Source: an uncultured Candidatus Saccharibacteria bacterium
GTDB taxonomy: Bacteria; Patescibacteriota; Minisyncoccia; Phycocordibacterales; CALRHW01
Assembly: GCA_964390845.1 (NCBI GenBank)
Contig: CAYMIL010000001.1
Coordinates: 11,307 to 75,306 of the forward strand
DNA: 64,000 nt
Direction of reading: 5' to 3'
How positions within the stretch are numbered: the first letter of the stretch is position 1; the number at the start of each line of letters is the position of its first letter. Made by a program: the position numbers and the translations under genes. The notes under the pieces are model-generated. The model did no database searches. It had not been told where the DNA came from and was given only the letters and a program-made list of their open reading frames with translations. Below are positions 4,131 through 61,980 of this stretch, piece by piece.

Positions 4131-4160
4131 TTGAAAGTGTATTGGGGTGATATGTAAAAA

Positions 4161-4188
4161 CGCGCGACCCTGTTGTGAGGGTCGCGCG
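4161..4188 (-). terminator. rho-independent terminator (11-bp perfect stem CGCGCGACCCT/AGGGTCGCGCG, loop GTTGTG, T-run on minus strand)
   Basis: inverted repeat read directly; on minus strand followed by TTTTTAC. Confidence 0.55.
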
Positions 4189-4301
4189 AGAAATGCAGCG
4201 AGATGCGGTCATGGCGTCAGTACGGCTTGTGCACCAAAGAACAGCGCGCCTACCGACAGTGCCGCGAGGATGCCGGCAAACGTGTCGTCGAGCATGATGC
4301 C

Positions 4302-4778
4302 TCATACGCCTGGGCATTTTTCCGCGGTCGATACTGGTACGGGCTTGAGGGTATCGAACACACGGAACATGATGAGTGCCGCCACAAGCCACCAGAACTG
4401 GAGCCACGCATCTCCAACGGGGAACAGGAACACGGCGAGCCCCGCGATTGCCTGACCGTGCACTTCATCGATGTTGGTCTCGTTGAAGTCGTGCGAGGTT
4501 TCTTCGCCTGTGTGTCGCTTGCGCTTGCCCCAGCGGGTTGCCATGAAGTGTTCGGCCGTGCCAACGAAGCACAGTCCGAGCATGAACGACGTCACGACGA
4601 GAACCAGCGAAGCGGTCCAGTCGTACCCCTGCCACACGAACATGCATTGGATGGCGAAGGCAACGAGGCTGCCCATGAGACCGCCGCCGGCTCCTGCCTT
4701 GCGGAGAATGATTCCTGGGATGAAGCCACTGAAGCCACCACTTGAAACTCCGATCGCACAAAGGGCGAGTATGTTCAT
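4302..4778 (-). CDS. pgpA: phosphatidylglycerophosphatase A (PgpA family), in ~62% GC island
   Basis: alignable to E. coli PgpA blocks (GSG..PGT.GSL, IDEVHG.., WLVAALIMFRVFDTLKPVPV vs WVAAGFVIFRILDMWKPWPI); GGAGGG SD before ATG (MNIL...). Confidence 0.6.
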   Translation of the reverse strand: MNILALCAIGVSSGGFSGFIPGIILRKAGAGGGLMGSLVAFAIQCMFVWQGYDWTASLVLVVTSFMLGLCFVGTAEHFMATRWGKRKRHTGEETSHDFNETNIDEVHGQAIAGLAVFLFPVGDAWLQFWWLVAALIMFRVFDTLKPVPVSTAEKCPGV

Positions 4779-4922
4779 ACGCGCACCCTCCTTTCTCTGG
4801 ATGTATATAGAACAATCCGACACAATGTACCATGATATTTTTATTTTGACTATGTTTCTATTGTCGATTAGTATTATTCACGGAATTAAGAACAACATCT
4901 GCGTCGTGCGCAAGGAGGCACC

Positions 4923-5222
4923 GTGAACCTTAGACTTGTGGGAACGAATCGTAGGAGGGCGTATTACCCACGACTTCTTCGCATATACCACCGTATTGCA
5001 TTTCAGGAACATGGACCCTGCATTCTTTGTAGGCACCCCATCAATCCTGGAGAGGAGTATTGTGGCGCTGTGTATGTTCAGAGGGGAAAATTGTGGGTCC
5101 TCAAGCAACACCTGTTCTGTATGGATGAATTTGACGATGAGATTGATAGACTCGATAACGAGATGCGAGAAGATGAAGATGAGCGTGGAAAAGTGAGTCG
5201 ATCCCATCGTCGAGTCGCCTGA
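4923..5222 (+). CDS. small Cys-rich (putative zinc-ribbon) protein with acidic C-terminus, GTG start
   Basis: strong SD AAGGAGG 5 nt before GTG; C-x2-C-x11-C plus extra Cys; DEFDDEIDRLDNEMREDEDE tail. Confidence 0.35.
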   Translation: MNLRLVGTNRRRAYYPRLLRIYHRIAFQEHGPCILCRHPINPGEEYCGAVYVQRGKLWVLKQHLFCMDEFDDEIDRLDNEMREDEDERGKVSRSHRRVA

Positions 5223-5279
5223 ATCACCCAAGGCCGATGCGAAAAGCGCAGCGGTCTTGTTTTTTAATCCATCTAGAAA

Positions 5280-7451
5280 CTATGCCGGCCACTTTTCTAC
5301 GATGAGTAGATTTTTTTCTGCCTGAGGAAGATGCGCCCAGATTTCTTCTGTTACAAATGGCATGAATGGGTGAAGAATGACGACGCAGTGTTTGAGAATC
5401 TTAAGAAGTGTTTGCTGTCGAGATAGTTTTGCTGTATCGTCTGTGCCCGAAAGTATCGGCTTACTTTCCTCGAGTATTTTGTCTGCGAAGCGGTCCCAGA
5501 TGTAATGATAGATTTTTTCAGATGCGAGATGGAAGCGGAATCCGTCGAGGTCTGACGTGATATCTTTTGTTATTGTTTCAAGCTCATCGATGAGTGCTTT
5601 GTCTGCGTCTGTCGTAATCTGTGCAGAGTTTTCTACAATCCCTTCAGTGTTTGAAAGCACAAACCGTGTGATGTTCCAGAGTTTGTTTGCAAAATTTTTG
5701 TACCCCTTTATCTTGCTTTCTGAAAGCGCGGTATCGCTTCCAGGCGGATTACCAACAACAAGTCCCATACGAAGCGCATCGGTGCCGTATTTTTCTGTCA
5801 TGTCGACAGGGTTTACCACGTTGCCCTTGCTCTTGCTCATCTTTTTTCCGTGAGCGTCGTTGACGAGGCCGTGGAGATACACATCGCGGAATGGTACGTT
5901 GCCCGCAAGATAGAGGCCGAAAATCACCATGCGTGGAATCCATTTGAAAATGAGGTCATAACCCGACTCCATGACGTCGGTAGGGTAATGTGCGCTAAAA
6001 TCTTTACCGTCTGGGTATCCTGTTGTGATAAGCGGCCACTGGCCAGAAGAAAACCACGTGTCGAATGTGTCAGTATCTTGTGTTACTGAGCCACCGCACT
6101 TTGGGCATGTCGTCGCAGTGTTTTCAAGGTCGGGGAAGGCGTGACCGCATGCACCTTTTTCGTTGGCACAGATTTTTGCAGGAATCTGAATACCCCACAC
6201 GATTTGTCGGGAAATATTCCAGTCGAGTGTGTTCTCCATCCAGTAGTTGAAGATTTTTCGGTAATTGTCTGGATGGAATGTGATGTTGCCCGCTTCTACG
6301 GCAGCGAGCGCCTTTTCTGCAAGCGGTTTCATTTTTACATACCATTGTGGCATGCGCCGCGGCTCAATAACTGTGTTGCATTTGTAGCATGTCGGTACAG
6401 GGTGTACGTAGTCTTCGGTTTTCTCGATAAGACCGAGTGCTTCGAGATCGGCGGCAACTTGTTTGCGAGCCTCGGCAATTTTAAGCCCGGCATATTTCCC
6501 AGTTTTCTCGTTTAGTTTTCCATACTTGTCGATAACCTCAACAGAAGGGAGGTTGTGTCGCGCGGCAAGCTCGAAATCATTTTTGTCGTGAGCGGGTGTG
6601 ATTTTGAGTGCGCCTGTTCCAAATTCTTTTTCTACCATCTCATCACCAACAACAAGGAGGTTCATGTCGCCGATAGGTGTTTGTACCGTAATAGTAGTAC
6701 CAATGAGTGATTTGTATCGCTCGTCTGTTGGATGTACTGCTACAGCAACATCACCGAACATTGTTTCTGGACGTACGGTGGCGACGGTGAGAGGGCCATA
6801 TTTCAAATAGTAGAGCTTGTCCGTCATTTCTTTTGTTTCAGTCTCTACATCGGAGAGGGATGTCTGGTGTTTTGTGCACCAGTTCACCATGCGGTCGCCA
6901 CGATAGACAAGGCCGTCATCGTACATTTTTTTAAATGTCTCCTGAACCTGACGAATAACTTTTTCGTCGAGGGTAAAGAGTTCACGTGACCAGTCGCACG
7001 ACGCACCAAGCATGCGCACTTGGTTTTCCATGGTCGCCTTGTTTTCTAGAGTAAATTTGTAGATCTCCTCATAGAGTTCGCGCGGGTCCATTTTGAAACG
7101 CGAACGACCTTCTTTTTCAAGTTTTCGTTCGTATACAATCTGTGTTTCAAAACCAGCATGGTCTGCACCGGGAATCCAGAGTGCACGAAAGCCCTTCATG
7201 CGTTTGTAGCGGGTGATGATATCTTCGACGGTGATAGCGAGCGCGTGGCCGACGTGGAGGTTGCCGTTGGCGTTTGGTGGGGGCATGACAATAGTAAATG
7301 CCTTAGCGTCGTCGTATCGAGCGGGGAGATTGTCGGGGTTGAAAAAGCCAGAGCGTTCCCACTCGGCGTAGATTGTCGACTCCGTACTCTTTGGGTCGTA
7401 TGGTTTTGTAAATTTCTCGTGAATATTGTGTATTATAGCGGTTTTTGGCAC
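5280..7451 (-). CDS. valS: valyl-tRNA synthetase (compact, 723 aa)
   Basis: class I HIGH-type NANGNLHVGHA, RPETMFGDVAVAVHP (ValRS signature), KMSKS. Confidence 0.85.
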   Translation of the reverse strand: MPKTAIIHNIHEKFTKPYDPKSTESTIYAEWERSGFFNPDNLPARYDDAKAFTIVMPPPNANGNLHVGHALAITVEDIITRYKRMKGFRALWIPGADHAGFETQIVYERKLEKEGRSRFKMDPRELYEEIYKFTLENKATMENQVRMLGASCDWSRELFTLDEKVIRQVQETFKKMYDDGLVYRGDRMVNWCTKHQTSLSDVETETKEMTDKLYYLKYGPLTVATVRPETMFGDVAVAVHPTDERYKSLIGTTITVQTPIGDMNLLVVGDEMVEKEFGTGALKITPAHDKNDFELAARHNLPSVEVIDKYGKLNEKTGKYAGLKIAEARKQVAADLEALGLIEKTEDYVHPVPTCYKCNTVIEPRRMPQWYVKMKPLAEKALAAVEAGNITFHPDNYRKIFNYWMENTLDWNISRQIVWGIQIPAKICANEKGACGHAFPDLENTATTCPKCGGSVTQDTDTFDTWFSSGQWPLITTGYPDGKDFSAHYPTDVMESGYDLIFKWIPRMVIFGLYLAGNVPFRDVYLHGLVNDAHGKKMSKSKGNVVNPVDMTEKYGTDALRMGLVVGNPPGSDTALSESKIKGYKNFANKLWNITRFVLSNTEGIVENSAQITTDADKALIDELETITKDITSDLDGFRFHLASEKIYHYIWDRFADKILEESKPILSGTDDTAKLSRQQTLLKILKHCVVILHPFMPFVTEEIWAHLPQAEKNLLIVEKWPA

Positions 7452-7477
7452 AATGTGAATACGTTACTATATATTAT

Positions 7478-7942
7478 ATGACACACAAACATATCACCGT
7501 ATTGCGCAAAGAGTCGCTTGTACAAATGATTAAAAACGCCCCTGGGACGCGTTTGTTCAACTCACTTATCGTGCGTCATGAAGATACGGGTCGTGTGGAA
7601 GATGTATTTCAAGATGGAAATCTTTCTTGTGCAGCATTTGTCAGTAGTTTGCTAACGCTCACGACTATGCTTTCCGAGCCACGAGCAACCGTTGCTTCAC
7701 TCCGCGCTGTTATAGAAGAATCTTCGCAATGGGAGTCTGTTGATGTGGCGAACGTAGAACCTGGAGATGTTGTGTTTTGGGCAACACAGCGTTTTGATAA
7801 CGGCGAAGATCACGCTCATGTTGGTTTTGTGTTGAATTCAGAGGAGGCGGTTTCTACCGACTACAAAGTTCGCGCTGTAGCGAAACATCCACTTGTGGGA
7901 ACGAGAGTAATCGACGCGGTGTTTAGGTATCGTGTTATCTAA
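7478..7942 (+). CDS. hypothetical protein, possible papain-like/NlpC-P60-like Cys-His fold
   Basis: conserved-looking LSCAAF ... GDVVFW ... HVGFV arrangement; no firm family call. Confidence 0.4.
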   Translation: MTHKHITVLRKESLVQMIKNAPGTRLFNSLIVRHEDTGRVEDVFQDGNLSCAAFVSSLLTLTTMLSEPRATVASLRAVIEESSQWESVDVANVEPGDVVFWATQRFDNGEDHAHVGFVLNSEEAVSTDYKVRAVAKHPLVGTRVIDAVFRYRVI

Positions 7943-7999
7943 AAGAGAAAGCCACCCAGATTCTTGCGAACCCAGGTGGCCTACGGGAGGGAAAAGCTC

Positions 8000-8431
8000 T
8001 CACTGTTTCGCGAGTTTCTGCTTGTGAGCCTCGGAAACAGACTTGTTGAGTCGTTCGATGAACGGCGCGGCACTTTCGGGCCACTTTCCGTCCGGATGCA
8101 CTTTGGTGTGGGTGAACACACCATTGCGATCTCGAAGTGAAAATGATTCCCATCGTCCATCTGCCTTGATGTCGCGCGCAGTGAGCAGGGTGAAGTCGGC
8201 GAACCTCATGCTCATCGGCGTGAGTATCACGACGCGGTCGTCGTAGCCCGTCTGCGAGTTGTAGTCCTCGCGCACGTTTACGGTACAACCGTCGTAGGAA
8301 CTCAGGTATTCCATGGGCGGATGTGGTGTCACATCGCCCTTGTTGTCTAGCCCGAGGAATACGAGCACCATGAGCGGGAGCGCTGCTGCGAAAGCAATCG
8401 CCCCACGAACCCTTGCGTATGTCCGAGTCAC
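8000..8431 (-). CDS. hypothetical secreted/membrane-anchored protein (high-GC island; GTG start with GGAGGAG SD; alternative ATG at 8485)
   Basis: N-terminal hydrophobic anchor AIAFAAALPLMVLVFLGL; GC-rich codon third positions. Confidence 0.4.
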   Translation of the reverse strand: MTRTYARVRGAIAFAAALPLMVLVFLGLDNKGDVTPHPPMEYLSSYDGCTVNVREDYNSQTGYDDRVVILTPMSMRFADFTLLTARDIKADGRWESFSLRDRNGVFTHTKVHPDGKWPESAAPFIERLNKSVSEAHKQKLAKQ

Positions 8432-8464
8432 GTCTTCTCCTCCATGAAAAGAGCTTGTTGACCT

Positions 8465-8520
8465 CTGGATTCCCCCGGAATCCATGACAAGGCCTTCACT
8501 ATTGATATTACCATATATGG
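8465..8520. promoter_or_regulatory. divergent intergenic region with two perfect palindromes: TGGATTCC-CCC-GGAATCCA (8465-8483) and ACCATATATGGT (8509-8520)
   Basis: read directly; lies between divergently oriented high-GC ORFs. Confidence 0.35.
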
Positions 8521-8570
8521 TAGAATTAAAAAGGATTTTGACATACCCTCATTTCGTGGAGACATCCACC

Positions 8571-9242
8571 ATGGATGGTCATTCCGTCGTTGCTGACGGC
8601 GTTTCTACGCACGCACCCCACATCAAAAAGAAGGAGGTTTCTTGTGGTGCTGAAGAAGCAGTGAATGCTTTTAAGCTCTACAGCATTTCAAAGCAGGTAG
8701 AATCGTTTGCTCGCCGTGGAGTTCGGAGGGGGTGTTCTCCCTTCGACTTCGAATGTCCGCGTGGGCATGGTATGCAAGGAAACATACTTGTTCCGAGAAT
8801 TGAGTTTCTCGGACGCAACAGAGAGGAGGCTGGTGTTCGGCTTGTGCGTGTGTTTGGAACCATGCTCAAGCATCGGTTTTCGAGCGTAGACCTGCGGGGT
8901 TCGACACTCGAAGACAAGACGACGCGCGGTCTTGCTCGTGTGCAGGAGTATCACATCAATCGAAACATGCAGTTCGTGGCACTGCCGGTACGCGTAGTGG
9001 TTGCTCAGTCTGACACACGCGACGACGAATTTGGCCTCGGCCTTGTCGAGACTATGTCGTTTGTGATGACCCATGTGCCTCGGTTGTGGGCACTTTATTC
9101 TGCCATTGGCACGTTTTCGATCCCGTGTCTTGGGGAGCGATTCTTCGAATTCGTCTTCCGTGATGGCGTGGTTGAGCTCGTTGCCTGTGAGCAGAATGCA
9201 GTGCTTCAGCGTGTGCATGTGTGGGCAACATGCTGGCGGTAG
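8571..9242 (+). CDS. hypothetical protein (high-GC island; ORF opens at 8484, ATG with GGAGA SD at 8571)
   Basis: long ORF with GC-rich third positions; no recognisable domain. Confidence 0.4.
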   Translation: MDGHSVVADGVSTHAPHIKKKEVSCGAEEAVNAFKLYSISKQVESFARRGVRRGCSPFDFECPRGHGMQGNILVPRIEFLGRNREEAGVRLVRVFGTMLKHRFSSVDLRGSTLEDKTTRGLARVQEYHINRNMQFVALPVRVVVAQSDTRDDEFGLGLVETMSFVMTHVPRLWALYSAIGTFSIPCLGERFFEFVFRDGVVELVACEQNAVLQRVHVWATCWR

Positions 9243-9263
9243 CGCGAGGGCTGTTCGTTGGAT

Positions 9264-9310
9264 AAAAAGGGGCCGGACGCGTTGCGCGTCCGGCCCTCTT
9301 CTTCTTTTTT
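9264..9310. terminator. bidirectional rho-independent terminator (GGGGCCGGACGCG-TTG-CGCGTCCGGCCC flanked by A-run and T-run)
   Basis: 12-bp GC stem read directly; convergent genes end on both sides. Confidence 0.6.
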
Positions 9311-11125: not shown

Positions 11126-12265
11126 TCTGTCATAGAAATCGTCAACACACTCCTCGAGCGCGCGAGGCTCTCATGTGCATCCGATATACATCTTCAGCCT
11201 ACACACCACAATGTGCGTGTGCGTTTTCGTGTTGATGGCGTGTTGCGCGACGAAGATACTCTCGACATACAGACGTATCCGGAAATTGTGTCGAGAATAA
11301 AAATTCTTTCGCACCTGCGTACTGATGAAAGAAATGCTCCTCAAGATGGTCGTTTTTCCTATGGCGGAGGAGATGTGCGAGTGTCATGTGTGCCATCGCA
11401 TCATGGTGAGTGTGTGGTGCTGAGATTACTTATGTATACGATGGGTAATTGTTCGTTGGAAAGCATGGGTTTTTCAGAAGGTGATGTGCAAAAGATATAC
11501 AGGGCACTTCAAAAACAGTGGGGTATGGTGCTTGTTACAGGTCCAACGGGTTCCGGAAAAACAACAACACTTTATTCACTTGCAAAAATTCTCAACAAAC
11601 CAGATGTTTCGATTGTAACAATCGAGGATCCGGTCGAATATGCGGTGGATGGAATGAAACAGATCAATATCAATCCGCGTAGTGGTCTTACGTTTGCACA
11701 TGGACTTCGTTCGGTGCTGCGGCAAGATCCAGACATTATCATGGTCGGCGAAATTCGAGATACAGAAACTGCACACATCGCAACGCATACAGCACTGACG
11801 GGGCACATGTTGTTGTCTACGCTACATACTGTCGATGCATCTTCTGCAATACCTAGGCTCGTCGATATGGGCGTTGAACCGTTTCTGATTTCCTCGACAC
11901 TTACAATGGTGATTGCTCAAAGACTTGTACGAAAAATATGTCCACAGTGCAAAACGACGCGAACACTTTCTCAAGCACAACGCAATGCACTGATGGGTGC
12001 ATACGGTTGGGAGATATCGTCTGTATATTATGGCGCAGGATGTGACGTGTGTGGACGCTGCGGCTTTGTTGGGCGTGAGGTGCTCGCTGAGATTCTTGAG
12101 GTGGATCAACACATACGAGATGTGATTGTGCATTCCCACGATGCGTCACACGTTCGTGCCGTTGCGCGTGAACATGGCATGGTCTCGATAGCGTCTCAGG
12201 GATTGGGCAAGATTATGCAGGGAGTCACGACACTTGAAGAGGTGCTTGAGCTTCTTCACGAATAA
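11123..12265 (+). CDS. pilB: type IV pilus/type II secretion assembly ATPase, GspE/PilB family (short form lacking N1 domain)
   Basis: Walker A GPTGSGKTTTLYS, Asp/His boxes, C-terminal tetracysteine CPQC...CDVCGRCG. Confidence 0.8.
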   Translation: MSVIEIVNTLLERARLSCASDIHLQPTHHNVRVRFRVDGVLRDEDTLDIQTYPEIVSRIKILSHLRTDERNAPQDGRFSYGGGDVRVSCVPSHHGECVVLRLLMYTMGNCSLESMGFSEGDVQKIYRALQKQWGMVLVTGPTGSGKTTTLYSLAKILNKPDVSIVTIEDPVEYAVDGMKQININPRSGLTFAHGLRSVLRQDPDIIMVGEIRDTETAHIATHTALTGHMLLSTLHTVDASSAIPRLVDMGVEPFLISSTLTMVIAQRLVRKICPQCKTTRTLSQAQRNALMGAYGWEISSVYYGAGCDVCGRCGFVGREVLAEILEVDQHIRDVIVHSHDASHVRAVAREHGMVSIASQGLGKIMQGVTTLEEVLELLHE

Positions 12266-17177: not shown

Positions 17178-17325
17178 CCCATTGCGTCTTTAATATTTGT
17201 GTTGTACGATATTTCTTGGTAGTTCATCGTTGTGTTTTCGCGTTGGATTCCACTGTGCGTGTCCCTATGGATGGGGCTGCCTGTGCCCGACAGTTTTCGG
17301 GTAACATCGCGTTTGGAGAATTGTC

Positions 17326-17838
17326 TTGACCTCTTACCTCGAACACTACAAGAAGAAGTTGGCTCGCGATCGCAGCAGTCCTGCGATGCGACAGGCGCGG
17401 CGTCCGACCGGAGCTCCTCTCATCATCCCCGATGACGAGCAGAAGCGTCTGGATCGGATCAAGAAGCGCCGCGCTGCTGAGATCGCCGCGCGTAAGCGCA
17501 AGCTTGAGAAGCCGGACCCGCCTCCGCGCGAGCTCGGGTGGATGCGCTTCGTGCGCTACGTTGTCGATGGGAAGGAGATGTACTGGCCTTCTGGCGGCCC
17601 TGTGTGGGTTGCGTATCAGGACAACACGATGTTCGTCCTGCCGGAGGGCTGTCTGCTCTTTCACGGTCGCAACGTTGAGGATTTCGAGATTGAGTGCCGT
17701 GAGGGTGCTCGGGTTGAGCTCCCGTCGCTTCCCAACGTCGCGCCCGTGTCCGCAATGACTGCCGGACCCAAGGATTTCCGTGTCGTCGTGGAGGAATTCA
17801 CCATGCCCAAGGCAAGCAAGAAGCGTGTCGCGGCCTAG
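17326..17838 (+). CDS. hypothetical basic N-terminus protein in ~60% GC island (TTG start, GGAGAA SD)
   Basis: strong GC3 bias in this frame versus antisense ORF 17224-17901. Confidence 0.4.
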   Translation: MTSYLEHYKKKLARDRSSPAMRQARRPTGAPLIIPDDEQKRLDRIKKRRAAEIAARKRKLEKPDPPPRELGWMRFVRYVVDGKEMYWPSGGPVWVAYQDNTMFVLPEGCLLFHGRNVEDFEIECREGARVELPSLPNVAPVSAMTAGPKDFRVVVEEFTMPKASKKRVAA

Positions 17839-17873
17839 GCTGGGCATCAACAAGCGCAGAAAACACAATCCCT

Positions 17874-17910
17874 GGGGAGTTGGCTTACGCCGACTCCCCA
17901 CATTTTTTTC
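17874..17910. terminator. bidirectional terminator GGGGAGTTGGC-TTAC-GCCGACTCCCC + T7
   Basis: read directly; loop contains stop codon of minus-strand gene. Confidence 0.55.
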
Positions 17911-18256
17911 TATACAAAGCGTCTATTTTTTCAGCAAGAATAAAATCGTTTTCAGAAAGACTGTTGAGTGAGTGGGTGTAGAGGGTAAGTGTGACTTTGT
18001 TCCAGTCGTGCAGAGAGATGTTGGGGTGGTGCCCTTCAGCTTCTGCGATTGCACCAACATCATTTACAAAACCGAGTGCTTCAGAAAAATCTTTGAATTT
18101 TAATGTTTTTTCAATTCGAATATCGTCAATAAGGCTCCATTGGTTGAGCCCCTCTTTTAAATTCATCGCCGCTTCGATATCCAGAGCACCGTCCGCGTCT
18201 TCACAGGGTACACAATGTTTTTCTTCTCGTCGTTGAGAATTATTCTTTTCCGTCAT
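17885..18256 (-). CDS. pterin-4a-carbinolamine dehydratase (PCD/DCoH family)
   Basis: EAEGHHPNISL ... LTLYTHSLNSLSEND motif pattern. Confidence 0.65.
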   Translation of the reverse strand: MTEKNNSQRREEKHCVPCEDADGALDIEAAMNLKEGLNQWSLIDDIRIEKTLKFKDFSEALGFVNDVGAIAEAEGHHPNISLHDWNKVTLTLYTHSLNSLSENDFILAEKIDALYRKKCGESA

Positions 18257-30851: not shown

Positions 30852-30961
30852 GCTAGCACAGGTTGTGTATTGGTGCACGACTATGCTATAAATTTATGCA
30901 TATCAGCGTGGGTCGAAACTCGCGCGCAGTTCTTTGGGGAAACAGAAAGAAGGTGATAGCT

Positions 30962-31573
30962 ATGACGTGTCGTTCCGTTCCAACCTCAGTCGTCATCGTT
31001 GGTGAGGCGGGGACGGGAACGTCCTCCCTTCTCAGTGCGCTTCACAGCCAACTCAGTTTCAGGTGCCGTTCGGCGGGTAGTGAGGTGCGCAGGGCGCTTA
31101 TTCAGCGCAATGTCGACATCAACAACCCGGGCAGTCTCTATGAGACCGACGAGGAGTTTGACCTGAGGATTGACAGAGCGAATCGAGAGTTCATTGCCGA
31201 TGACGGCACCGCTCTCGACTGCCGACTCGGCCTGCTTGCGACAGAGGGCATGAGTCACGTGCTCAAGGTCAGACTCATCTGCGATCCGGAAGTGCGCTAC
31301 CAGCGCATCGCCGCACGCGAAGGGATTGCCCTCAGCCAAGCGGCAGAGCGAACGAAGGCTCGCGACGAACGCGACCTCAGGCGCCTCTCGACCATCTACA
31401 AGAAGACCCGCCAGGAGATCTACGGACTTCATCACTTCGATCGGGTGTTCGATACCACGGATACCTCGACGGAAGTGTGTGTTCGCGTGATCCAGAGCCT
31501 GTGCGCGCTCCCTCTCTTCGATGGGACCACCGTTCCCATGACCTGCTGTGGCCGATGTGCCAACGGCCGGTGA
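30962..31573 (+). CDS. P-loop kinase resembling archaeal-type (type 2) cytidylate kinase, in ~58% GC island
   Basis: IVGEAGTGTSSL Walker A; LKVRLICDPEVRYQRIAAREG...ERDLRR lid/C-terminal pattern; GAAGGTGA SD. Confidence 0.45.
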   Translation: MTCRSVPTSVVIVGEAGTGTSSLLSALHSQLSFRCRSAGSEVRRALIQRNVDINNPGSLYETDEEFDLRIDRANREFIADDGTALDCRLGLLATEGMSHVLKVRLICDPEVRYQRIAAREGIALSQAAERTKARDERDLRRLSTIYKKTRQEIYGLHHFDRVFDTTDTSTEVCVRVIQSLCALPLFDGTTVPMTCCGRCANGR

Positions 31574-31593
31574 ACAACGCCCCCCCCAACTAG

Positions 31594-31637
31594 CCCTGTG
31601 CACCGCCCTCAAGGTGGTGTACGGGGTTATTTTTTTG
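31594..31637 (+). terminator. rho-independent terminator (CCCTGTGCACC...GGTGGTGTACGGGG with G:U pairs, then TTATTTTTTTGTTG)
   Basis: folded by hand. Confidence 0.45.
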
Positions 31638-31654
31638 TTGTAAAATAAGCTGTA

Positions 31655-31678
31655 ATGACGGGTCTGTATATCCGTCAT
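31655..31678. promoter_or_regulatory. palindrome ATGACGG-N10-CCGTCAT 6 nt upstream of ECF sigma start
   Basis: read directly. Confidence 0.3.
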
Positions 31679-33463: not shown

Positions 33464-33487
33464 TCAGTACTGCGATATAATTTTCGC

Positions 33488-34729
33488 ATGCCTGATAATT
33501 CAAATCCTTTCGCTAACGCGATTTCTCAATTGGAGCGCGCCGCTTCAGTTGCGCAAGTAAGTCCGGCGTTTATTGAGCGCATGAAGTTTCCGGATCGTCA
33601 TGTCGAGGTAAGTATTCCTGTGCGCATGGATGATGGAACAGAGCGCATCTTTCAAGGTTTTCGAAGTCAGCACAACAATGCCCGCGGTCCATACAAGGGT
33701 GGTATCCGCTTTCATCCCAATGTTGATCTCGACGAAGTTCGCGCACTCAGTTTTTGGATGACTTTTAAAACAGCGGTCGTTGGAGTGCCGTTTGGTGGTG
33801 GTAAGGGTGGTGTTGTGGTAGATCCAAAAACCCTGAGCGCTCGGGAGCTTGAAGCGGTCGCGCGTGGATATGTGCAGAAAATGTATCCTGTGCTCGGGCC
33901 AGAAATCGATGTTCCGGCACCCGATGTAAACACAGGTGAAGTCATTATGGGATATATGCTCGATGAGTATGAGCGTATGGTACAGAAAAAAGCACCCGCA
34001 ACGTTTACGGGAAAAGCTGTCTCAAATGGCGGGAGCGAGGGGCGTACTGAAGCAACTGGTTTTGGCGGTGGTGTTGTGTTGAGAGAGATTATGCGCGCAG
34101 GGTTCCTTCCTGCTGTAGAAAAACCCCGTGTTGCGATTCAGGGTTTTGGAAATGTTGCGACATATATGGCAGAGAGTGCGGTACAGCAGGGAATGTCTGT
34201 CGTTGCATTATCTGACAGTTCTGGTGGTGTATATGCCTCTGGTGGTATTGATATCGCTAAAGCATTGGCGCACAAAAAGCAGACAGGATCGCTTGCTCAT
34301 CTTGAAGGCACAACACCTATTTCAAACGAAGAATTGCTCGCATCCGATGTGGATATTCTTATTCCATCAGCTCTTGAAAATGTTCTTACGGGGGAAAACG
34401 CGAGTGCTGTGCGTGCCCGACTCGTGCTTGAAATGGCAAATGGTCCGACAACACAGAAGGCAGATGATGTGATGCATGAGCGTGGTATCGTGGTTGTGCC
34501 AGACATTCTCGCAAACAGTGGTGGTGTCGCAACAAGCTATTTTGAATGGTATCAAAACATGCACAACGAGCGTTGGACTCGAGAAGAAGTGTTGCACAAA
34601 CTCGATCAGCGTATGACGGAAGCTGTTGCGGCAGTGTGTGCGATGCGAGCAAAATACAACACCACACTTCGAAATGCCGCATATATTCTTGCTGTAGAGC
34701 GCATACAAGAAAAAATGAATATCGTATAA
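33488..34729 (+). CDS. gdhA: NAD(P)-dependent glutamate dehydrogenase
   Basis: GPYKGGIRFHP, VVGVPFGGGKGG active-site blocks; Rossmann GFGNVA. Confidence 0.85.
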   Translation: MPDNSNPFANAISQLERAASVAQVSPAFIERMKFPDRHVEVSIPVRMDDGTERIFQGFRSQHNNARGPYKGGIRFHPNVDLDEVRALSFWMTFKTAVVGVPFGGGKGGVVVDPKTLSARELEAVARGYVQKMYPVLGPEIDVPAPDVNTGEVIMGYMLDEYERMVQKKAPATFTGKAVSNGGSEGRTEATGFGGGVVLREIMRAGFLPAVEKPRVAIQGFGNVATYMAESAVQQGMSVVALSDSSGGVYASGGIDIAKALAHKKQTGSLAHLEGTTPISNEELLASDVDILIPSALENVLTGENASAVRARLVLEMANGPTTQKADDVMHERGIVVVPDILANSGGVATSYFEWYQNMHNERWTREEVLHKLDQRMTEAVAAVCAMRAKYNTTLRNAAYILAVERIQEKMNIV

Positions 34730-34736
34730 TACACGT

Positions 34737-35705
34737 ATGGAAGAAGCTCTCAAAAATTTTGCACAACAATTTGCGTGGAAACCTATAATTGAGCACGAGG
34801 ATGCTTTGCCGCGCGAACGAAGAAGTGTTGTGCTTTGTGGTATGGGTGGTTCACACCTTGCGGCGGATATTTTGAAGATGGTGCGACCAGAGACTGATAT
34901 ATACATACATCGAGATTATGGCTTGCCTGCACTCGATGACGCGAAATACAGTACGGCACTTCATATCGCAAGTTCTCATTCTGGAAATACAGAAGAAGTC
35001 CTCGACTTTGTGAGTGAAGCGCTAAAACGCGGTCGGTCTGTCGCTGTCATTTCTTCTGGAGGTGCTCTCATAGACGTTGCTCGCACACATTCATTGCCCT
35101 ACGTACTTTTGCCAGACGGTGGGATACAGCCTCGTGTTGCTATCGGCCATGCACTCGTGGCGCTCGGTGCACTTTTGGGAGATACTCCTCTTCTGCAGGA
35201 GCTAGGGCGGCTGGCTGTCGAGTGGAAACCCTCGGAGATAGAAGCAGAGGGAAAAGCGCTTGCATGGAAAATGCAAGGGAAGATTCCGCTTGTGTATGCT
35301 TCTCGAGCTCGTAGCGCACTCGCAATGAATTGGAAGATTCGTTTTAATGAAACGGCGAAAATCCCTGCATTTCACAATGTGTTTCCCGAGCTCAATCACA
35401 ACGAAATGGAAGGTTTTGATCTGATGAATCAAATGGAAATGTCGACAAACATTTTTCATTTCATCTTTCTCTTTGACAAAAACGACCACCCACGTATTTC
35501 TCGTCGAATGATTATTACTCGAAAATTGCTTGAAGCTCGAGGTTACACCGTGTCTGTTGTTGAGAGTGCAGAAAAAAATCCTTGGATCAACGCATTTCAT
35601 TTGTTACTTCTTGCCGACTGGACAGCAGTGCATATTGCTCAGGAAAACGATGTTGACCCCGAGCAGGTGCCAATGATTTCAGAATTAAAAGAAAAACTTT
35701 CCTAA
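34737..35705 (+). CDS. SIS-domain bifunctional phosphoglucose/phosphomannose isomerase family
   Basis: VLCGMGGSHLAADIL SIS motif. Confidence 0.6.
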   Translation: MEEALKNFAQQFAWKPIIEHEDALPRERRSVVLCGMGGSHLAADILKMVRPETDIYIHRDYGLPALDDAKYSTALHIASSHSGNTEEVLDFVSEALKRGRSVAVISSGGALIDVARTHSLPYVLLPDGGIQPRVAIGHALVALGALLGDTPLLQELGRLAVEWKPSEIEAEGKALAWKMQGKIPLVYASRARSALAMNWKIRFNETAKIPAFHNVFPELNHNEMEGFDLMNQMEMSTNIFHFIFLFDKNDHPRISRRMIITRKLLEARGYTVSVVESAEKNPWINAFHLLLLADWTAVHIAQENDVDPEQVPMISELKEKLS

Positions 35706-36758: not shown

Positions 36759-36857
36759 TTGCTTTTGGGTCGTGTTCGCTGTATTCTTGTAGGTAGAAAG
36801 CGTGCCGTATCACGCAATCACTGACACTCTTGAAAACCAGAAAGGAGGTGATGAGTC

Positions 36858-37187
36858 ATGAACAGCAAACAGCCTGTTCGCGGACTGAAGTACGAGGGCC
36901 TCGTAGAGCTTCAACTTAAGCGACTTCGTTTTCTCGAAGGAGTGCGCGAAGCGTGTAAGGGGAAGCCTGGCGGTATTGGGGTTCGGAAAAACTGGACCCC
37001 CGAAGATCGTCAGACGCACAAGGAGCACAAGGCTCGCATCCATGCTCATCGAGAGCTGTATAAAATCGATGATGCCATGGCGCAGGATGCCCTCGACGAA
37101 GCCGTGAAGCGCCATGAGGAACTCAAGGTGCTTCAGGACATTCCAGAAGATCAGCAAGAAGGAACAAGCCATGCAGATGCAGCGTGA
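36858..37187 (+). CDS. hypothetical protein in ~55% GC island (AAAGGAGGTGA SD)
   Basis: strong SD, GC3-rich frame, own terminator. Confidence 0.4.
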   Translation: MNSKQPVRGLKYEGLVELQLKRLRFLEGVREACKGKPGGIGVRKNWTPEDRQTHKEHKARIHAHRELYKIDDAMAQDALDEAVKRHEELKVLQDIPEDQQEGTSHADAA

Positions 37188-37213
37188 AAGCTGGCATGAG
37201 TTGTTCGCCAGGT

Positions 37214-37268
37214 AAGGCGTCGTTCGGATGAAATTCGATCGACGCTTTCCTTTTGTCTTTATTTTTTA
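37214..37268 (+). terminator. rho-independent terminator (AAGGCGTCG...CGACGCTTT + T-rich tail)
   Basis: folded by hand. Confidence 0.45.
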
Positions 37269-37281
37269 TACTCTATACACC

Positions 37282-38379
37282 ATGTCGTTATCAGTCGGAA
37301 TCGTTGGTTTGCCAAATGTGGGAAAGTCCACACTCTTCAATGCTCTTACAAAAAAGAGTGTTCTTGCCGCGAATTATCCCTTTGCCACAATCGACCCATC
37401 CGTGGGCGTGGTAGAGGTTCCCGATGAACGTCTCTGGAAACTTTCTGCGTTTTCCAACACGCAAAAGACAGTGCCTGCCGCGGTGGAATTCGTAGATATT
37501 GCGGGGCTTGTAAAAGGCGCGTCGGAAGGCGAGGGCCTTGGAAATCAATTTCTCACAAATATTCGCGAAACAGATGCTATTGCTCAGGTTGTACGTATTT
37601 TTGAAGATGAAAATATTATTCATGTCGATGGAAAAATACATCCAGTAGGGGATATTGAGGTAATCAATCTTGAGCTTATTTTGGCTGATTTACAAACAGT
37701 CACAAAGAGACTTGGCAATTTGGGGCGCGATGTGAAGCGTGGAGACAAAACAGCGCTTCTTGAGCACGACGCGCTCATTCGTATTGAAAGCGCCCTCAAG
37801 GATGGTAAGCTTGCATCGTCTGTTGCACTCAATGATCTAGAAAAGCCTCTTGTGAAGCAGCTTCACCTCCTTACCTCAAAACCAATGATGTATGTGCTCA
37901 ATAAAAAAGCTGGGGGGAAAAATCTTGATGAAATAAAAGATGAACGATGGGACGCCCTACTCACATTTCTTAATAACTCTGGCGCAAAATGGGTAGTTGT
38001 TGACGCGCGCATCGAAGAAGAGCTCAAGGATATGTCTGGTGAAGAAAAAACGATGTTTAGAGGTGAGCTCGGAGCGCACGATGACGGTATCAACAATCTG
38101 ATTCGTACTGGCTACGATTTGCTCAATCTCATTACATATTTCACGACAGGCGAAAAAGAAACGCGGGCATGGACTATTGTGCGGGGATGGAATGCACCAA
38201 TGGCGGGAACAGCTATTCATACAGACTTTAAAGATAAATTTGTGCGCGCAGAAGTCGTAGAGTGGGACAAACTCATTGAAGCAGGCTCATACGGCGCCGC
38301 TCGTGAAAAAGGCCTTGTGCGAACTGAAGGAAAAGAATACATCGTCAAAGACGGTGATGTGATTGAGTTTAAGATTTAG
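37282..38379 (+). CDS. ychF: ribosome-binding ATPase YchF (Obg-family GTPase fold + TGS)
   Basis: [19 protein letters not shown]1, C-terminal TGS-like domain. Confidence 0.85.
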
Positions 38380-38392: not shown

Positions 38393-38421
38393 GTTTAAAT
38401 TTGCCCAAAAACTGGTATAAT
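38393..38421 (+). promoter_or_regulatory. sigma70 promoter TTTAAA-N17-TATAAT with TG extension; ATG 9 nt after -10 (leaderless-type)
   Basis: read directly. Confidence 0.35.
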
Positions 38422-38429
38422 GCGCGCAT

Positions 38430-38996
38430 ATGAATCAGAAAAAACCAGCCGTTGTAAAGTGGGCTCTTATCATAGGTATCACTATTGTTCTTAACCTCTT
38501 TTTCAATTACGCCGCGTCGCTTGTATTTACACAGCCTGAATATAATAATTTCTGCCCTCAAGCTCAGGTGATGCAAGCATTGTCTGACGAGCGTGCGTGT
38601 GTGCAAGCTGGTGGTCAGTGGAATGGATACGCAACGCCTGTTATGGAAAAATCTGCAACGGGACAAACTGTTGCTGTGAGTGGCTATTGCGATCCGCAGT
38701 TTACATGTCGACAAAATTTTGATGCCGCACAAAAAACATATGACAGAAATGTGTTCGTGACACTTGTTGTGCTTGGGGTTCTCTGTATCGCGTACGCTCT
38801 TATTTCCAGAAAAAATGAAGTATTGGCTACAGCGCTGTCCTTTGGAGGTGTGTTGTCGTTTGTTATTGCTTCGATGAGATATTGGTCCCACGCAGACAAC
38901 ATCCTCAAGGTCGTCATTCTTGGTCTCGCGCTTGCGATACTGGTTGGTATTACACTTCGAACATTTAAAGATAGCAGTGAAACAGTACGATCATAA
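38430..38996 (+). CDS. hypothetical membrane protein with Cys-containing extracytoplasmic loop
   Basis: TM at N-terminus and 2 TM at C-terminus. Confidence 0.4.
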   Translation: MNQKKPAVVKWALIIGITIVLNLFFNYAASLVFTQPEYNNFCPQAQVMQALSDERACVQAGGQWNGYATPVMEKSATGQTVAVSGYCDPQFTCRQNFDAAQKTYDRNVFVTLVVLGVLCIAYALISRKNEVLATALSFGGVLSFVIASMRYWSHADNILKVVILGLALAILVGITLRTFKDSSETVRS

Positions 38997-48995: not shown

Positions 48996-50798
48996 ATGAA
49001 TTCACAGCAGATTCGAAGCGCATTTTTGGCCTTTTTTAAAGAACGCGGACACGCCGTGTTGCCCTCAGCATCTCTGGTTACGACTGATGAAAAGGGTGTA
49101 ACAGACAATACACTTTTTAATACGGCGGGTATGCAGCCGCTTATTCCGTACTTGCTTGGCGCACAACACAAAGAGGGTACGCGTCTCGCAAGCTCACAAA
49201 AGTGTTTGCGCACAACTGACATCGACAGTGTTGGAGATAATACGCACGCAACCTTTTTTGAAATGCTCGGCAACTGGTCGCTTGGGGATTATTTTAAAAA
49301 AGAGGCAATAGAGTGGAGTTTTGAATTTCTGACATCAAAAGAAAAAGGTCTTGGCTTGGATCCGCGCCGTTTGTATGTGACGGTGTTTGAAGGAGATGAG
49401 AATGCACCAAAAGACGAAGAGTCGTATGTGCTATGGAAAGATATATTTGCTCGGCACAATATTTCTGGTGAGCGAATCTATTACATGGGCGCAAAAAGTA
49501 ATTGGTGGAGTGCTGGAGACAACGGTCCATGTGGTCCCGACACTGAGATGTTTTATGATCTTACAGGTACGCTTCTTGATGGTATGACGCGGGAGGAGTA
49601 TATGCGTGCTGACGATGAGCAGAAGGTTGTCGAAGTTTGGAATGACGTCTTTATGGAGTATGAAAAGAAAGATGGTCGGGTTGTGGGTAAGCTTCCGCGA
49701 CACAACGTCGACACAGGTGCTGGCCTCGAGCGCTTACTTGCTGTGCTGTCTGGTGCGCGGTCTATTTTTGACACAGACGTGCTTGCTCCGCTTGTGCGTG
49801 TGGCCGAAAAAATAGCGGACACAACTCGAGCACAACGTATCATTGCTGACCATATTCGCACCTCAGTATTTCTTATCGCCGACGGCGTTACGCCCTCAAA
49901 CACAGATAGAGGCTATATTCTTCGCCGACTTCTTCGTCGTGCAGTGCTCAATACACGCACACACAACATAGATGCAGGTACATTGAGTGAATTTCTCGGG
50001 CATGTTTCCACGGTATATGGCACAGAATATCCAGAAATAACAGCACAGCGTGCATCGATTGAAAGTGTTATACATCAGGAGGTGGAAAAATTTAGAAAAA
50101 CGTTGTCTGACGGTATAAAGCAGTTTGAGAAAATAATATCGCAATCACAAGGCACCATTTCTGGCACCGATGCATTTGTGCTTTTTTCTACGTATGGTTT
50201 CCCAATAGAAATGACACAGGAACTTGCTCAAGAACGAGGGGTGAAAGTCGACATGGAGAGTTTTAAAACTGAGTTTTCACAACACCAAGAACGCTCTCGC
50301 GCGGGTGCTGAGCAAAAATTCAAGGGAGGTCTTGCGGGGACAGACGACATGTCTGTGCGGTACCACACTGCTACACATTTGTTGCATCAAGCGCTTCGGG
50401 ATGTTCTTGGCGAGCATGTAGAACAGCGTGGTTCAAATATTACTCCTGAGCGATTACGATTTGATTTTACGCATCCTCAAAAAATGACAGACGAAGAGAA
50501 GCGTCGAGTTGAAGAAATTGTAAATCAAAAAATTACAGCATCTCTCCCAGTACACTGTGTTGTGTTGCCAAAAGACGAAGCACTACGCACAGGTGCACGA
50601 CACCTTTTTAATGAAAAATATGGAGATGAAGTGAGTGTGTATATTATTGGCGACACACTCGACACGGCATATTCAAAAGAATTTTGTGGTGGACCACATG
50701 TAAACAATACACGTGAGCTTGGCGTCTTCTCAATCGTGAAAGAAGAAGCAGTTTCTTCAGGCGTTCGACGCATCAAGGCAATTCTTTCTGTGGTATAA
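48996..50798 (+). CDS. alaS: alanyl-tRNA synthetase, short form (catalytic + editing, no C-Ala domain)
   Basis: class II motifs, editing HxxxH (HTATHLLH) and CGGPHV. Confidence 0.85.
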   Translation: MNSQQIRSAFLAFFKERGHAVLPSASLVTTDEKGVTDNTLFNTAGMQPLIPYLLGAQHKEGTRLASSQKCLRTTDIDSVGDNTHATFFEMLGNWSLGDYFKKEAIEWSFEFLTSKEKGLGLDPRRLYVTVFEGDENAPKDEESYVLWKDIFARHNISGERIYYMGAKSNWWSAGDNGPCGPDTEMFYDLTGTLLDGMTREEYMRADDEQKVVEVWNDVFMEYEKKDGRVVGKLPRHNVDTGAGLERLLAVLSGARSIFDTDVLAPLVRVAEKIADTTRAQRIIADHIRTSVFLIADGVTPSNTDRGYILRRLLRRAVLNTRTHNIDAGTLSEFLGHVSTVYGTEYPEITAQRASIESVIHQEVEKFRKTLSDGIKQFEKIISQSQGTISGTDAFVLFSTYGFPIEMTQELAQERGVKVDMESFKTEFSQHQERSRAGAEQKFKGGLAGTDDMSVRYHTATHLLHQALRDVLGEHVEQRGSNITPERLRFDFTHPQKMTDEEKRRVEEIVNQKITASLPVHCVVLPKDEALRTGARHLFNEKYGDEVSVYIIGDTLDTAYSKEFCGGPHVNNTRELGVFSIVKEEAVSSGVRRIKAILSVV

Positions 50799-56352: not shown

Positions 56353-56367
56353 TACTGTTGTAATACC

Positions 56368-56715: not shown

Positions 56716-56719
56716 ATCC

Positions 56720-57064: not shown

Positions 57065-57071
57065 AACGTCT

Positions 57072-57479: not shown

Positions 57480-57490
57480 TAGAGCTTCCA

Positions 57491-57518
57491 AAAGAGTCCT
57501 GAACGGGACTTTTTTGTT
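57491..57518 (+). terminator. rho-independent terminator after rpsI (AAAAGAGTCC-TGAAC-GGGACTTTTTT)
   Basis: folded by hand. Confidence 0.55.
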
Positions 57519-57563
57519 TGGTTCTTGAAAGCAACACAACGTTTTGATAATCTATGTGTACCC

Positions 57564-58118: not shown

Positions 58119-58155
58119 ATAGTAGTTTATTAATCTAATTCATTCACACGAATAT

Positions 58156-60042: not shown

Positions 60043-60045
60043 TTC

Positions 60046-61128: not shown

Positions 61129-61223
61129 TTTTTGTATCTTACTGACAACAATCCGCGTTACACATCCACACGAAGAATCAGCGACAGATGTGTATTTTTA
61201 GAAACTGTTTAGACAAACAAAAA

Positions 61224-61267
61224 CCCCGCAAACAACACGAGACACGGGGTCTTTGTTGTTTGCGGGG
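61224..61267 (-). terminator. 14-bp perfect-stem hairpin (CCCCGCAAACAACA...TGTTGTTTGCGGGG), immediately 3' of the minus-strand gene stop, T-run on minus strand
   Basis: read directly. Confidence 0.5.
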
Positions 61268-61274
61268 TTGCGGG

Positions 61275-61565
61275 TCACGAGCGAGGATCTTCTTCGGGCA
61301 GCTCATCATAAATCTGCTGCCCAGTTTTGCCATCGCCGACACGCAAGAGGTCCCAGTGCTTCTTCCATCGACCCCAATTCGTGAGGCTGATGTAGGCCGG
61401 GGTGATGATCAGGAAGATCCACCACCAGATTCCGTTCGCAATCGCCATCAAAGAGAAGAACACAATGCAGAGCAATGCCTCCACGATGGTCTCGATCATG
61501 CGATTGCGACGGACTTGACGCTTGCTGACAACGGGCATGTAGCTGATCATTCGGTTGGGGAACAT
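61275..61565 (-). CDS. small 2-TM membrane protein, hypothetical (high-GC island; AAGGAGA SD)
   Basis: hydrophobic core LLCIVFFSLMAIANGIWWWIFLIITPAYI; competing antisense ORF 61188-61661 rejected. Confidence 0.4.
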   Translation of the reverse strand: MFPNRMISYMPVVSKRQVRRNRMIETIVEALLCIVFFSLMAIANGIWWWIFLIITPAYISLTNWGRWKKHWDLLRVGDGKTGQQIYDELPEEDPRS

Positions 61566-61730
61566 GGTCAATCTCCTTATTCGCTAGAGCGATATTTCAA
61601 TCCATATCCCAATAAGGGGTATGGGTACGTAACTCTTAATATTAGAGCACATTTTATATGATAAAGTCAAGTATACGGCATCACCCCAATATCAGGATAT
61701 TTCGGTCCAAAAACACGAGCACTAATTGCC

Positions 61731-61760
61731 AAATAAAAAAGAAACCCCGCGCTAGCGGGG
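61731..61760 (-). terminator. hairpin CCCCGC-GCTA-GCGGGG containing stop codon of the 45-aa gene, T-run on minus strand
   Basis: read directly. Confidence 0.4.
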
Positions 61761-61886
61761 GAAGGGGGTGTCACAGAGGAAGAGTCGGATCATGAAGATG
61801 AGACTCACGATTCCGAACATGAGGAGAATGGCGAAGACATGCTCCTTCACGCTCATCTTGCGACGATGATTGCAGCGTCCCTGGTT
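61752..61886 (-). CDS. 45-aa single-TM peptide (MNQGRCNHRRKMSVKEHVFAILLMFGIVSLIFMIRLFLCDTPFPR), GGGAGG SD
   Basis: SD 5 nt before ATG; own terminator. Confidence 0.3.
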   Translation of the reverse strand, partial: NQGRCNHRRKMSVKEHVFAILLMFGIVSLIFMIRLFLCDTPFPR

Positions 61887-61980
61887 CATGCATACCTCCC
61901 TGGAAAGTGCGACTCGTTGTATATAATACGACATGAATAGTATTTGTCAATTATACCTTCCGTCTGTTATGATTTTCAAC

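Follow-up and report, generated by a model that had tools for sequence, protein, structure and literature searches.

The 64,000-nucleotide (nt) stretch analysed here (positions 11,307 to 75,306 of contig CAYMIL010000001.1, from an uncultured Candidatus Saccharibacteria bacterium, and called the window below) is a run of cellular housekeeping genes, and at six places between them it carries short GC-rich genes that probably came from other organisms. These island genes differ from the surrounding backbone genes in base composition, in synonymous codon usage, in the Shine-Dalgarno (SD) sites that precede them and in their orientation. Moreover, they lie in gene-sized units with recognisable boundaries, and the same units are present in several assemblies.

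Composition, codon usage and initiation signals

The window as a whole has a G+C content of 45.9%, and outside the six blocks in question the figure is 45.2% over the remaining 59.4 kb. The original prediction had described six islands of ~58–62% G+C, and the hand counts behind it were reproduced (61% G+C at 4191–4290 and 44% at 5280–5379). Three of the blocks do stand at ~59%, namely island 1 at 4150–4800 (59.0%, z 6.2), island 2 (I2) at 17200–17900 (58.9%, z 6.3) and island 3 (I3) at 30950–31640 (59.3%, z 6.5), where each z-score is relative to equal-size windows drawn from the rest of the window. The description is half true of block 2 at 7935–9310 (53.5%, z 5.1), and in bulk it fails for block 5 at 36800–37270 (51.4%, z 2.4) and block 6 at 61190–61900 (48.9%, z 1.7). 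A maximal-scoring-segment test, which set a 60% G+C model against one of 45%, yielded exactly four segments, at 4161–4791 (score 29.2), 7951–9296 (14.3), 17361–17899 (33.0) and 30966–31626 (33.6), all of them above the best score obtained from 30 shuffles (11.1). Clearly, neither G+C nor G+C at third codon positions (GC3) is uniform along the window, since computation returned GC-rich segments and GC3 outliers instead. The islets occupy ~5.6% of the window; the ~13-kb spacing of the three strong islands is regarded as coincidence.

At the level of genes, outliers occur in all six blocks, as had been expected of each, and they number eight. The 63 backbone genes have a GC3 of 0.409±0.046 with a maximum of 0.501, and every island gene lies above that maximum (Mann-Whitney p 9e-11): pgpA at 0.705 (z 6.4), g8000 at 0.667, g8517 at 0.541, I2 at 0.737, I3 at 0.706, g36858 at 0.536, g61275 at 0.732 and g61752 at 0.783. 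In terms of synonymous codons, the likelihoods of pgpA, g8000, I2 and I3 under backbone usage are 3.7–4.6 standard deviations low (z −3.7 to −4.6). When the SD-led frames are read, six of the eight genes have their highest codon-position value at GC3, and seven have their lowest at GC2; the order GC3>GC1>GC2 is broken by g8517 and g36858, where GC1 exceeds GC3, and by g61275, where GC2 is slightly above GC1. Third positions in the islands tend to end in C (C3 41%, G3 30%), with leucine written as CTC (0.59) far more than as CTG (0.21), and a preference for CTY leucine codons is common to islands and backbone. The five strongest gene sets do not differ significantly in synonymous usage (p 0.09), so a single donor pool is possible. 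Ribosomal-protein, chaperone and aminoacyl-tRNA synthetase genes have the same GC3 as the backbone, and expression level therefore does not raise GC3 here. By these measures there are six clear island genes and two marginal ones, g8517 and g36858.

Another means by which the two sets of genes can be told apart is translation initiation. An SD duplex of −6 kcal/mol or lower precedes seven of the eight island genes, but in the backbone only 6 genes of 63 have one (Fisher p 9e-6), so that the predicted contrast of canonical SD sites in the blocks with weak or absent ones in the backbone was borne out more strongly than it had been claimed. A guard against wrong start calls, in which the best SD was taken over all candidate starts in the first 50 codons, gave −9 kcal/mol in five of eight island genes versus four of 63 backbone genes. 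Complementarity was scored against the canonical 16S 3′ tail, and the long SD complements of that tail (AGAAAGGAGGTGAT) extend to 14 of 14 positions in g36858, 13 of 14 in I3 and 10 of 10 in pgpA.

The upstream regions of backbone genes, for their part, are G-poor. A TANNNT box ends 4–10 nt before the ATG in 15 of the 41 backbone genes that start with ATG, versus 9% of control ATGs, and examples of this leaderless type occur at 33466–33490, 34715–34739, 38408–38432, 37267–37284 and 61911–61935. A −10 box at such a distance from the start implies that many first-in-operon backbone genes would be transcribed as leaderless mRNAs, and the backbone thus looks SD-poor and partly leaderless. By the same crude SD score, strong SDs amount to 0–16% in 16 Patescibacteria loci, including ones of 56–58% G+C, versus 26–59% in Bacillota loci; no description of SD-poor or leaderless initiation in Patescibacteria was found in the literature searched. 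A separate observation concerns YchF, for which the start of the longest open reading frame (ORF), at 37228, is probably not the true one: the conserved N-terminal MSLSVG is encoded from 37282, and a TATACT 9 nt before that position would make it another leaderless-type start.

Orientation sets the island genes apart as well, since the minus strand carries four of the eight but only 5 of the 63 genes of the backbone (p 0.007). The GC-rich segments begin with the SD or start codon, and they finish at the final base of a GC hairpin trailed by a T-run. Each block had been credited with a GC-stem terminator of its own, and such terminators were indeed found for pgpA, g8000, g8517, I2, I3, g61275 and g61752, which gives an ORF with its own terminator in seven of eight units; g36858 is followed by a large-loop hairpin only. 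A consensus promoter was found only for g61752, and read-through from upstream genes is possible for I2 and g36858.

The island sequences recur identically in five to seven contigs from at least three assemblies (ERZ28655916, ERZ27309394 and Logan SRR6747782). The antisense ORFs across islands 1 and 3 were found in seven and six contigs, respectively, which range from 10 kb to 0.2–1 Mb and come from ENA, Logan and NCBI. Across island 3 a Logan contig (SRR6747782) matches with 100% identity, as does ERZ27309394 across block 6.

Individual units and their surroundings

Island 1 holds pgpA, for phosphatidylglycerophosphatase A (4209..4778, minus strand; 189 codons, 59% G+C; Pfam PF04608, 4e-11). 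Its SD, AGAAAGGAGG (4787..4796, minus strand), lies 8 nt before the ATG and forms a duplex of −12.1 kcal/mol, while its terminator (4161..4188, minus strand), CGCGCGACCCT-loop-AGGGTCGCGCG followed by TTTTT, marks the left edge of the GC-rich segment 4161–4791. The reading frame is interrupted by a TGA at 4302–4304, just before the conserved GIMLDD motif. Homology runs on past this codon, whose place is taken by Trp in the closest homologue (57% identity), and an intact full-length PgpA domain with its C-terminal G-I-M-x-D-D is not present, because the TGA splits GIMLDD off. Recoding of TGA (code 4 or 25) was ruled out, as TGA is a normal stop in this genome and terminates 12 of 70 genes, four of them island genes. 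Since TGA is an ordinary stop here, and since it is fixed in seven of the seven contigs that carry this stretch, pgpA is probably a pseudogene, or else its product is truncated without the C-terminal motif.

In all, 33 homologues of pgpA were found, 24 of them in a group of 40–57% identity, and the closest (at most 57%) belong to uncultured genomes of 36–50% G+C. The G+C content of a homologous gene tracks that of its local genome: it is 30% where the genome has 36%, 55% where the genome has 50%, and 48% on a contig of 43%. The content of Gly, Ala, Arg and Pro (GARP) in the PgpA of the window is the highest among the closer homologues (P0002–P0022) and the second highest in the whole 40–57% group, which suggests that this protein has long been resident in GC-rich DNA.

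Two observations in the vicinity of pgpA genes may be added. Just upstream of the homologue in the 36% G+C genome (L005, 8251–9750), 1.5 kb of 47–56% G+C without a called gene is probably an RNA gene. In the window, a gap of 450 nt separates the pgpA unit from valS and contains an unannotated 99-aa (amino acid) ORF (4923–5222, plus strand) with a GTG start preceded by AAGGAGG; it is of ordinary composition (GC3 0.44) and has no Pfam match, and it could be either a genuine small gene or an ORF that arose by chance.

Island 2 consists of one gene on the plus strand (unit 17312..17838) with the SD GGAG (17315–17318), a TTG start at 17326 and a product of 170 aa (61% G+C); public gene calls place the start at ATG 17386, for 150 aa. 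The predicted protein is basic and helical at its N-terminus and rich in beta structure at its C-terminus, and it has no transmembrane (TM) segment. No family was found for it in Pfam, PHROGs, NCBIfam or PADLOC, and among 5.8 billion clustered proteins and 1.84 billion representatives it had no relative but itself, save one weak match. That match (E 8e-6) joins residues 81–115 (17566–17670) to P0042, a 450-aa low-complexity protein rich in N, K and S in which the matched 68-aa unit is repeated six times. The motif common to both, K-x-x-Y-W-x-x-G-x-x-x-W-x-x-x-x-D-N...G-x-x-x-F, may represent a rare small domain.

The terminator of I2, a GC hairpin followed by a T-run (17873..17900, plus strand), has its 3′ arm inside the last five codons of the convergent gene for pterin-4a-carbinolamine dehydratase (17885–18256, minus strand). 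The overlapped codons lie beyond the end of that protein's Pfam domain, which is what would be seen if the dehydratase ORF now ran into inserted I2 DNA. A 10-nt perfect inverted repeat around I2 (17230–17239/17859–17868) was discounted, as ~0.6 such pairs are expected by chance in the region.

Island 3 likewise holds one plus-strand gene (unit 30944..31573), preceded by the SD AGAAAGAAGGTGAT (30944–30957), with an ATG at 30962, 203 aa and 60% G+C, and closed by a 17-pair hairpin followed by TTTTTTT (31591..31636, plus strand). The protein matches Pfam PF13189 (8.5e-10) and TIGR02173 (2.2e-18), the latter over positions 3–165 of 169 and with 66.9 bits, below the curated equivalog cut-off of 102.1, and it would be a distant relative of archaeal-type (d)CMP kinases. 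In its P-loop, GEAGTGTSS, a Thr is aligned to the Walker-A Lys of the P-loop of the GTPase HflX (NAGKSS), so that the sequence G-E-A-G-T-G-T-S departs from the Walker-A pattern GxxGxGK[ST] at the catalytic Lys. Word-indexed sequence search returned no homologue of I3. For I2 and I3, single-sequence AlphaFold models were of unusable quality (predicted local distance difference test scores of 48 and 34), and PDB sequence searches with the island proteins found no homologue.

Block 2 contains two divergent genes. On the minus strand, g8000 (8000..8485) reads as 161 aa from ATG 8485 or 143 aa from GTG 8431, giving a GC3 of 0.64–0.67; the GTG, preceded by GGAGGAG, is the more likely start. The product has a predicted N-terminal membrane anchor, belongs to no known family by profile search (Pfam included), forms a singleton cluster and has no plasmid match by tblastn. 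The terminator of g8000 (7949..7982, minus strand) marks the left edge of the segment 7951–9296. The right edge is a bidirectional GC hairpin terminator of 12–13 pairs (9269..9297), which follows g8517 (8517..9242, plus strand; 241 aa). This gene has no SD, no known family and no match in plasmids or IMG/VR contigs; of the island members it is the weakest, and it may be an older gene, or a native one.

In block 5, the g36858 unit (36839..37187, plus strand) combines the perfect 14-nt SD AGAAAGGAGGTGAT (36839–36852) with a 109-aa charged soluble protein of no known family. Its G+C content of 54% comes chiefly from GC1 (0.73), its synonymous usage is near that of the backbone, and its membership among the islands rests mostly on the SD.

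Block 6 is outlying only on the minus strand, where a scan for SDs and start codons found two small genes. The first, g61275 (61275..61579, minus strand, with the gene itself at 61275–61565), encodes a 96-aa membrane protein behind the SD TAAGGAG (61573–61579) and ends in a 14-pair GC-rich hairpin with a T-run (61214..61267, minus strand). The second, g61752 (unit 61731..61950, minus strand), encodes a 45-aa single-TM peptide (61752–61889) and has a near-consensus promoter, TTGACA-N16-TATTAT (61923–61950), the SD GGGAGGT (61894–61900) and a hairpin terminator with a T-run (61731–61760), all on the minus strand. The plus-strand ORF that public callers place in this block has an ordinary GC3 of 0.42. 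In fact, public calls at three units are antisense shadow ORFs, at island 1 (4203–4745, plus strand), island 3 (30986–31678, minus strand) and block 6 (61188–61661, plus strand). Automatic annotation thereby puts three units on the wrong strand, and it overlooks pgpA, the probable pseudogene, as well as the CMP-kinase-like gene of island 3 and both of the small membrane-protein genes in block 6.

As for cargo, the expectation of mostly small membrane, secreted or kinase proteins holds roughly, with predicted membrane helices in four of the eight and one kinase-like protein. The plausible accessory functions that had been attached to them are doubtful for two, given the fixed in-frame stop of pgpA and the Thr that replaces the Walker-A Lys in I3. 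The island proteins have no PHROG match and nothing meaningful in PADLOC; tblastn gave no match in plasmids for six tested proteins, none in phages for I2 and I3, and none in IMG/VR contigs for I2, I3 and g8517.

The recipient appears to be Patescibacteria-like, judging by its backbone genes, and its epibiotic lifestyle is assumed. The backbone encodes the ATPase and platform protein of a type IV pilus, short valyl- and alanyl-tRNA synthetases (ValRS and AlaRS), Uvr proteins, ribosomal proteins and DnaK/J. Among the matches listed, the best for the pilus ATPase are 49–51% identical and include metagenome-assembled genomes of Yanofskybacteria, Jorgensenbacteria and Saccharibacteria, a Yanofskybacteria contig comes closest to the synteny of the four pilus genes, and the best for the histidine kinase in a metagenome scan is 44% identical, both scans being dominated by universal motifs (QDPDIIMV and DNGIGIPE). 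At 90% identity, every protein checked forms a cluster by itself. Among the matches listed, synteny was seen only in the relative L149, where it breaks off ahead of island 3 and does not extend to the island 2 site.

Further observations concern the backbone itself. ValRS (723 aa; 5280–7451, minus strand) and AlaRS (600 aa; 48996–50798, plus strand) fall well below the usual length of these enzymes in bacteria, which agrees with a reduced genome. The 3′ end of a minus-strand histidine-phosphatase gene overlaps the opposite-strand tRNA-Ala(TGC) by 28 nt (30077–30150/30123–30878). At the right end of the window, an AT-rich island of 30–38% G+C and at least 4 kb (62970–64000, continuing to about 67000 in L170) contains genes for a helix-turn-helix protein, an EcoRI-like methylase and a T5orf172 protein, its compositional offset being opposite in sign to that of the GC-rich islets. 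Because the source contig and a contig of another assembly both terminate in or beside it, this region suggests a strain-variable defence island.

Origin of the units

The arrangement could have come about as follows. A housekeeping stretch of a reduced Patescibacteria-like chromosome, with native genes that are almost all co-oriented, mostly SD-less and of GC3 ~0.41, would have received foreign single-gene units between its native genes at six places, presumably by separate events. Each unit would have consisted of an SD, a short ORF and its own hairpin/T-run terminator, in a moron-like layout, and the GC3 of six genes (0.67–0.78), the C-ending bias and the 10–14 nt SDs of three genes would have been retained from SD-dependent donors of ~60% G+C. 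The half-and-half strand orientation would fit unselected insertion. Decay would have followed in at least one unit (pgpA, with its fixed nonsense codon) and probably in a second (the CMP-kinase-like gene, whose product has no Walker-A lysine), and because of these two cases much of the cargo is probably neutral and transient rather than adaptive. The original prediction of multiple independent horizontal acquisitions thus stands as regards foreign-looking, gene-sized units at six places, recognised by GC3 and codon usage, SD and strand; it is not matched by a donor that can be named.

A number of points weigh against a foreign origin. None of the island genes yielded a donor or a close homologue, so transfer is not backed by phylogeny, and the homologues of I2, I3 and pgpA are too few for trees. 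No close relative with an empty site occurs among the matches listed. Flanking repeats were at the chance level of 10–15 nt and none was significant; searches for integrase genes and target-site duplications found none, there being no mobility domains in the islands and no integrase in the window. A tRNA-Ala gene lies ~750 nt from island 3, with a backbone gene between them. Two of the eight genes, g8517 and g36858, are mild outliers only, some start codons are uncertain, backbone starts were taken as those of the longest ORFs, and the choice of start for g8000 rested partly on its SD. Finally, the 100% identity of all assemblies means that they sample one clonal population.

Among the other explanations, a foreign origin with higher-GC Patescibacteria as donors, rather than a host or another lineage outside the candidate phyla radiation, has some precedent, since 83% of detected horizontal gene transfer into Patescibacteria came from other Patescibacteria (PMC12455944). 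Two Patescibacteria loci of 56–58% G+C (L017 and L039) share the codon signature of the islands (CTC>>CTG, C3>G3, GC3 ~0.69), in a comparison that is crude, keeps shadow ORFs in and cannot name a donor, and homologues of pgpA occur in small-genome-like metagenomic contigs. However, these two loci and 14 others have strong SDs at 0–16%, against five of eight island genes, three of them with SDs of 10–14 nt, and the closest pgpA homologue has no SD. The strong island SDs, set against 16 SD-poor Patescibacteria loci, favour a donor outside the group, and we consider Patescibacteria donors rather improbable. A native class of SD-led genes, whose composition is kept by selection on mRNA structure or condition-specific translation, would agree with units that are identical in every assembly examined, that carry working-looking signals (SD, terminator and, for g61752, a consensus promoter) and that share the leucine CTY preference with the backbone. 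This fits poorly with ribosomal-protein, chaperone and synthetase genes at backbone GC3, with a fixed nonsense codon in pgpA and a kinase-like protein without its catalytic lysine, with an orientation that is random where that of native genes is not, and with island proteins that lack relatives in the few related lineages found; little credence is given to it.

Two artefactual or non-coding explanations deserve still less. Chimeric joins, or contaminant fragments from a co-assembled high-GC organism, are conceivable in short-read metagenome assemblies, and an artefact shared by identical copies could be imagined. The same junctions, however, recur in five to seven contigs of very different lengths (ERZ28655916, ERZ27309394, SRR6747782 and NCBI), the borders fall on SD sites and terminators, one terminator overlaps the stop region of a backbone ORF, and six separate, cleanly bounded, gene-sized insertions would be an improbable pattern for misassembly. 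Because the sequence is the same in that many contigs of at least three assemblies, a chimera is very unlikely. GC-rich islands in AT-richer genomes are often RNAs, and long ORFs are open here on both strands, as might be seen if the blocks were structured non-coding RNA genes or introns. Rfam, however, matched only tRNA-Ala in the window, the islands gave nothing beyond chance when E values of up to 1 were allowed, codon-position G+C follows a coding pattern in the SD-led frames, and pgpA and I3 have protein-family homology. From the codon-position pattern and the Rfam result it follows that the blocks are protein genes, and the chance that they are RNAs is slight indeed.

If the genes are foreign, as seems probable, the identity of the donor can be narrowed somewhat. 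A well-sampled high-GC host, such as a cultured actinobacterium, is disfavoured, because close matches would then be expected and none was found; an unsampled host or its mobile elements is possible. It could even be that all the strong islets were supplied by a single partner of ~60% G+C that uses SDs, or by the phages of this partner, that the partner is the physical host of the epibiont, and that uptake occurred through the competence-type pilus encoded in the window, although we would give such a chain of events a low probability. Were it true, the clash between leaderless and SD-led initiation would serve as a sequence-only marker of host DNA, and the islets could help to find the hosts of uncultured Patescibacteria. 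More generally, composition, initiation signal and orientation independently flag the same genes, which offers a homology-free way of calling foreign genes in SD-poor lineages, and foreign DNA that is GC-richer and mostly made up of ORFans (genes without known relatives) points to an unsampled, SD-using donor pool in contact with the organism.

Comparison with known systems

The units can be compared with several kinds of acquired DNA. Compositionally atypical, horizontally acquired genes and genomic islets are reportedly the subject of the amelioration framework of Lawrence and Ochman. Like these, the units described here are gene-sized, deviate in G+C, GC3 and codon usage, have a patchy or ORFan-like distribution and in some cases are decaying. 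ORFans and xenogeneic DNA mostly exceed the genome of their host in A+T; the foreign DNA in this case, by contrast, would be GC-richer than its recipient. It also consists of single genes rather than multi-gene islands, shows no mobility genes, integration at tRNA sites or flanking repeats, and comes with a second marker in the contrast between SD-led and SD-less or leaderless initiation.

Phage morons are said by Hendrix and colleagues to be autonomous promoter-gene-terminator units that lie between phage genes and often deviate in base composition. The resemblance lies in units that stand between unrelated backbone genes and comprise a single gene with a translation signal and a factor-independent terminator of its own, in the deviant composition and in the independent orientation. 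The backbone here, however, is cellular housekeeping (aminoacyl-tRNA synthetases, Uvr, ribosomal proteins, DnaK/J) and not prophage, a promoter is evident only for g61752, and no PHROG or viral-contig relatives were found. Integron cassettes, too, are compact single-ORF units, each with a trailing imperfect palindrome. The units in the window, in contrast, are scattered and not arrayed, and searches found neither intI in the window nor attC-type sites, their palindromes being GC hairpins with T-runs.

The closest setting is that of Patescibacteria themselves, some of which have transferred genes and islands that make up as much as 13% of genome length (Gios et al. 2025, mSystems; PMC12455944). 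The islets at ~5.6% of the window resemble the individually transferred genes of that study, where transfer was mostly from Patescibacteria to Patescibacteria and partners could be identified (PMC12455944). Here no partner turned up, and the SDs argue against a donor within Patescibacteria. Single-gene transfer into Patescibacteria is thus already documented, and the phenomenon is not new, but it is seen here unusually clearly. What the window adds is GC-richer DNA of apparently foreign origin, its ORFan content, and the contrast between SD-led and leaderless initiation as an orthogonal marker.

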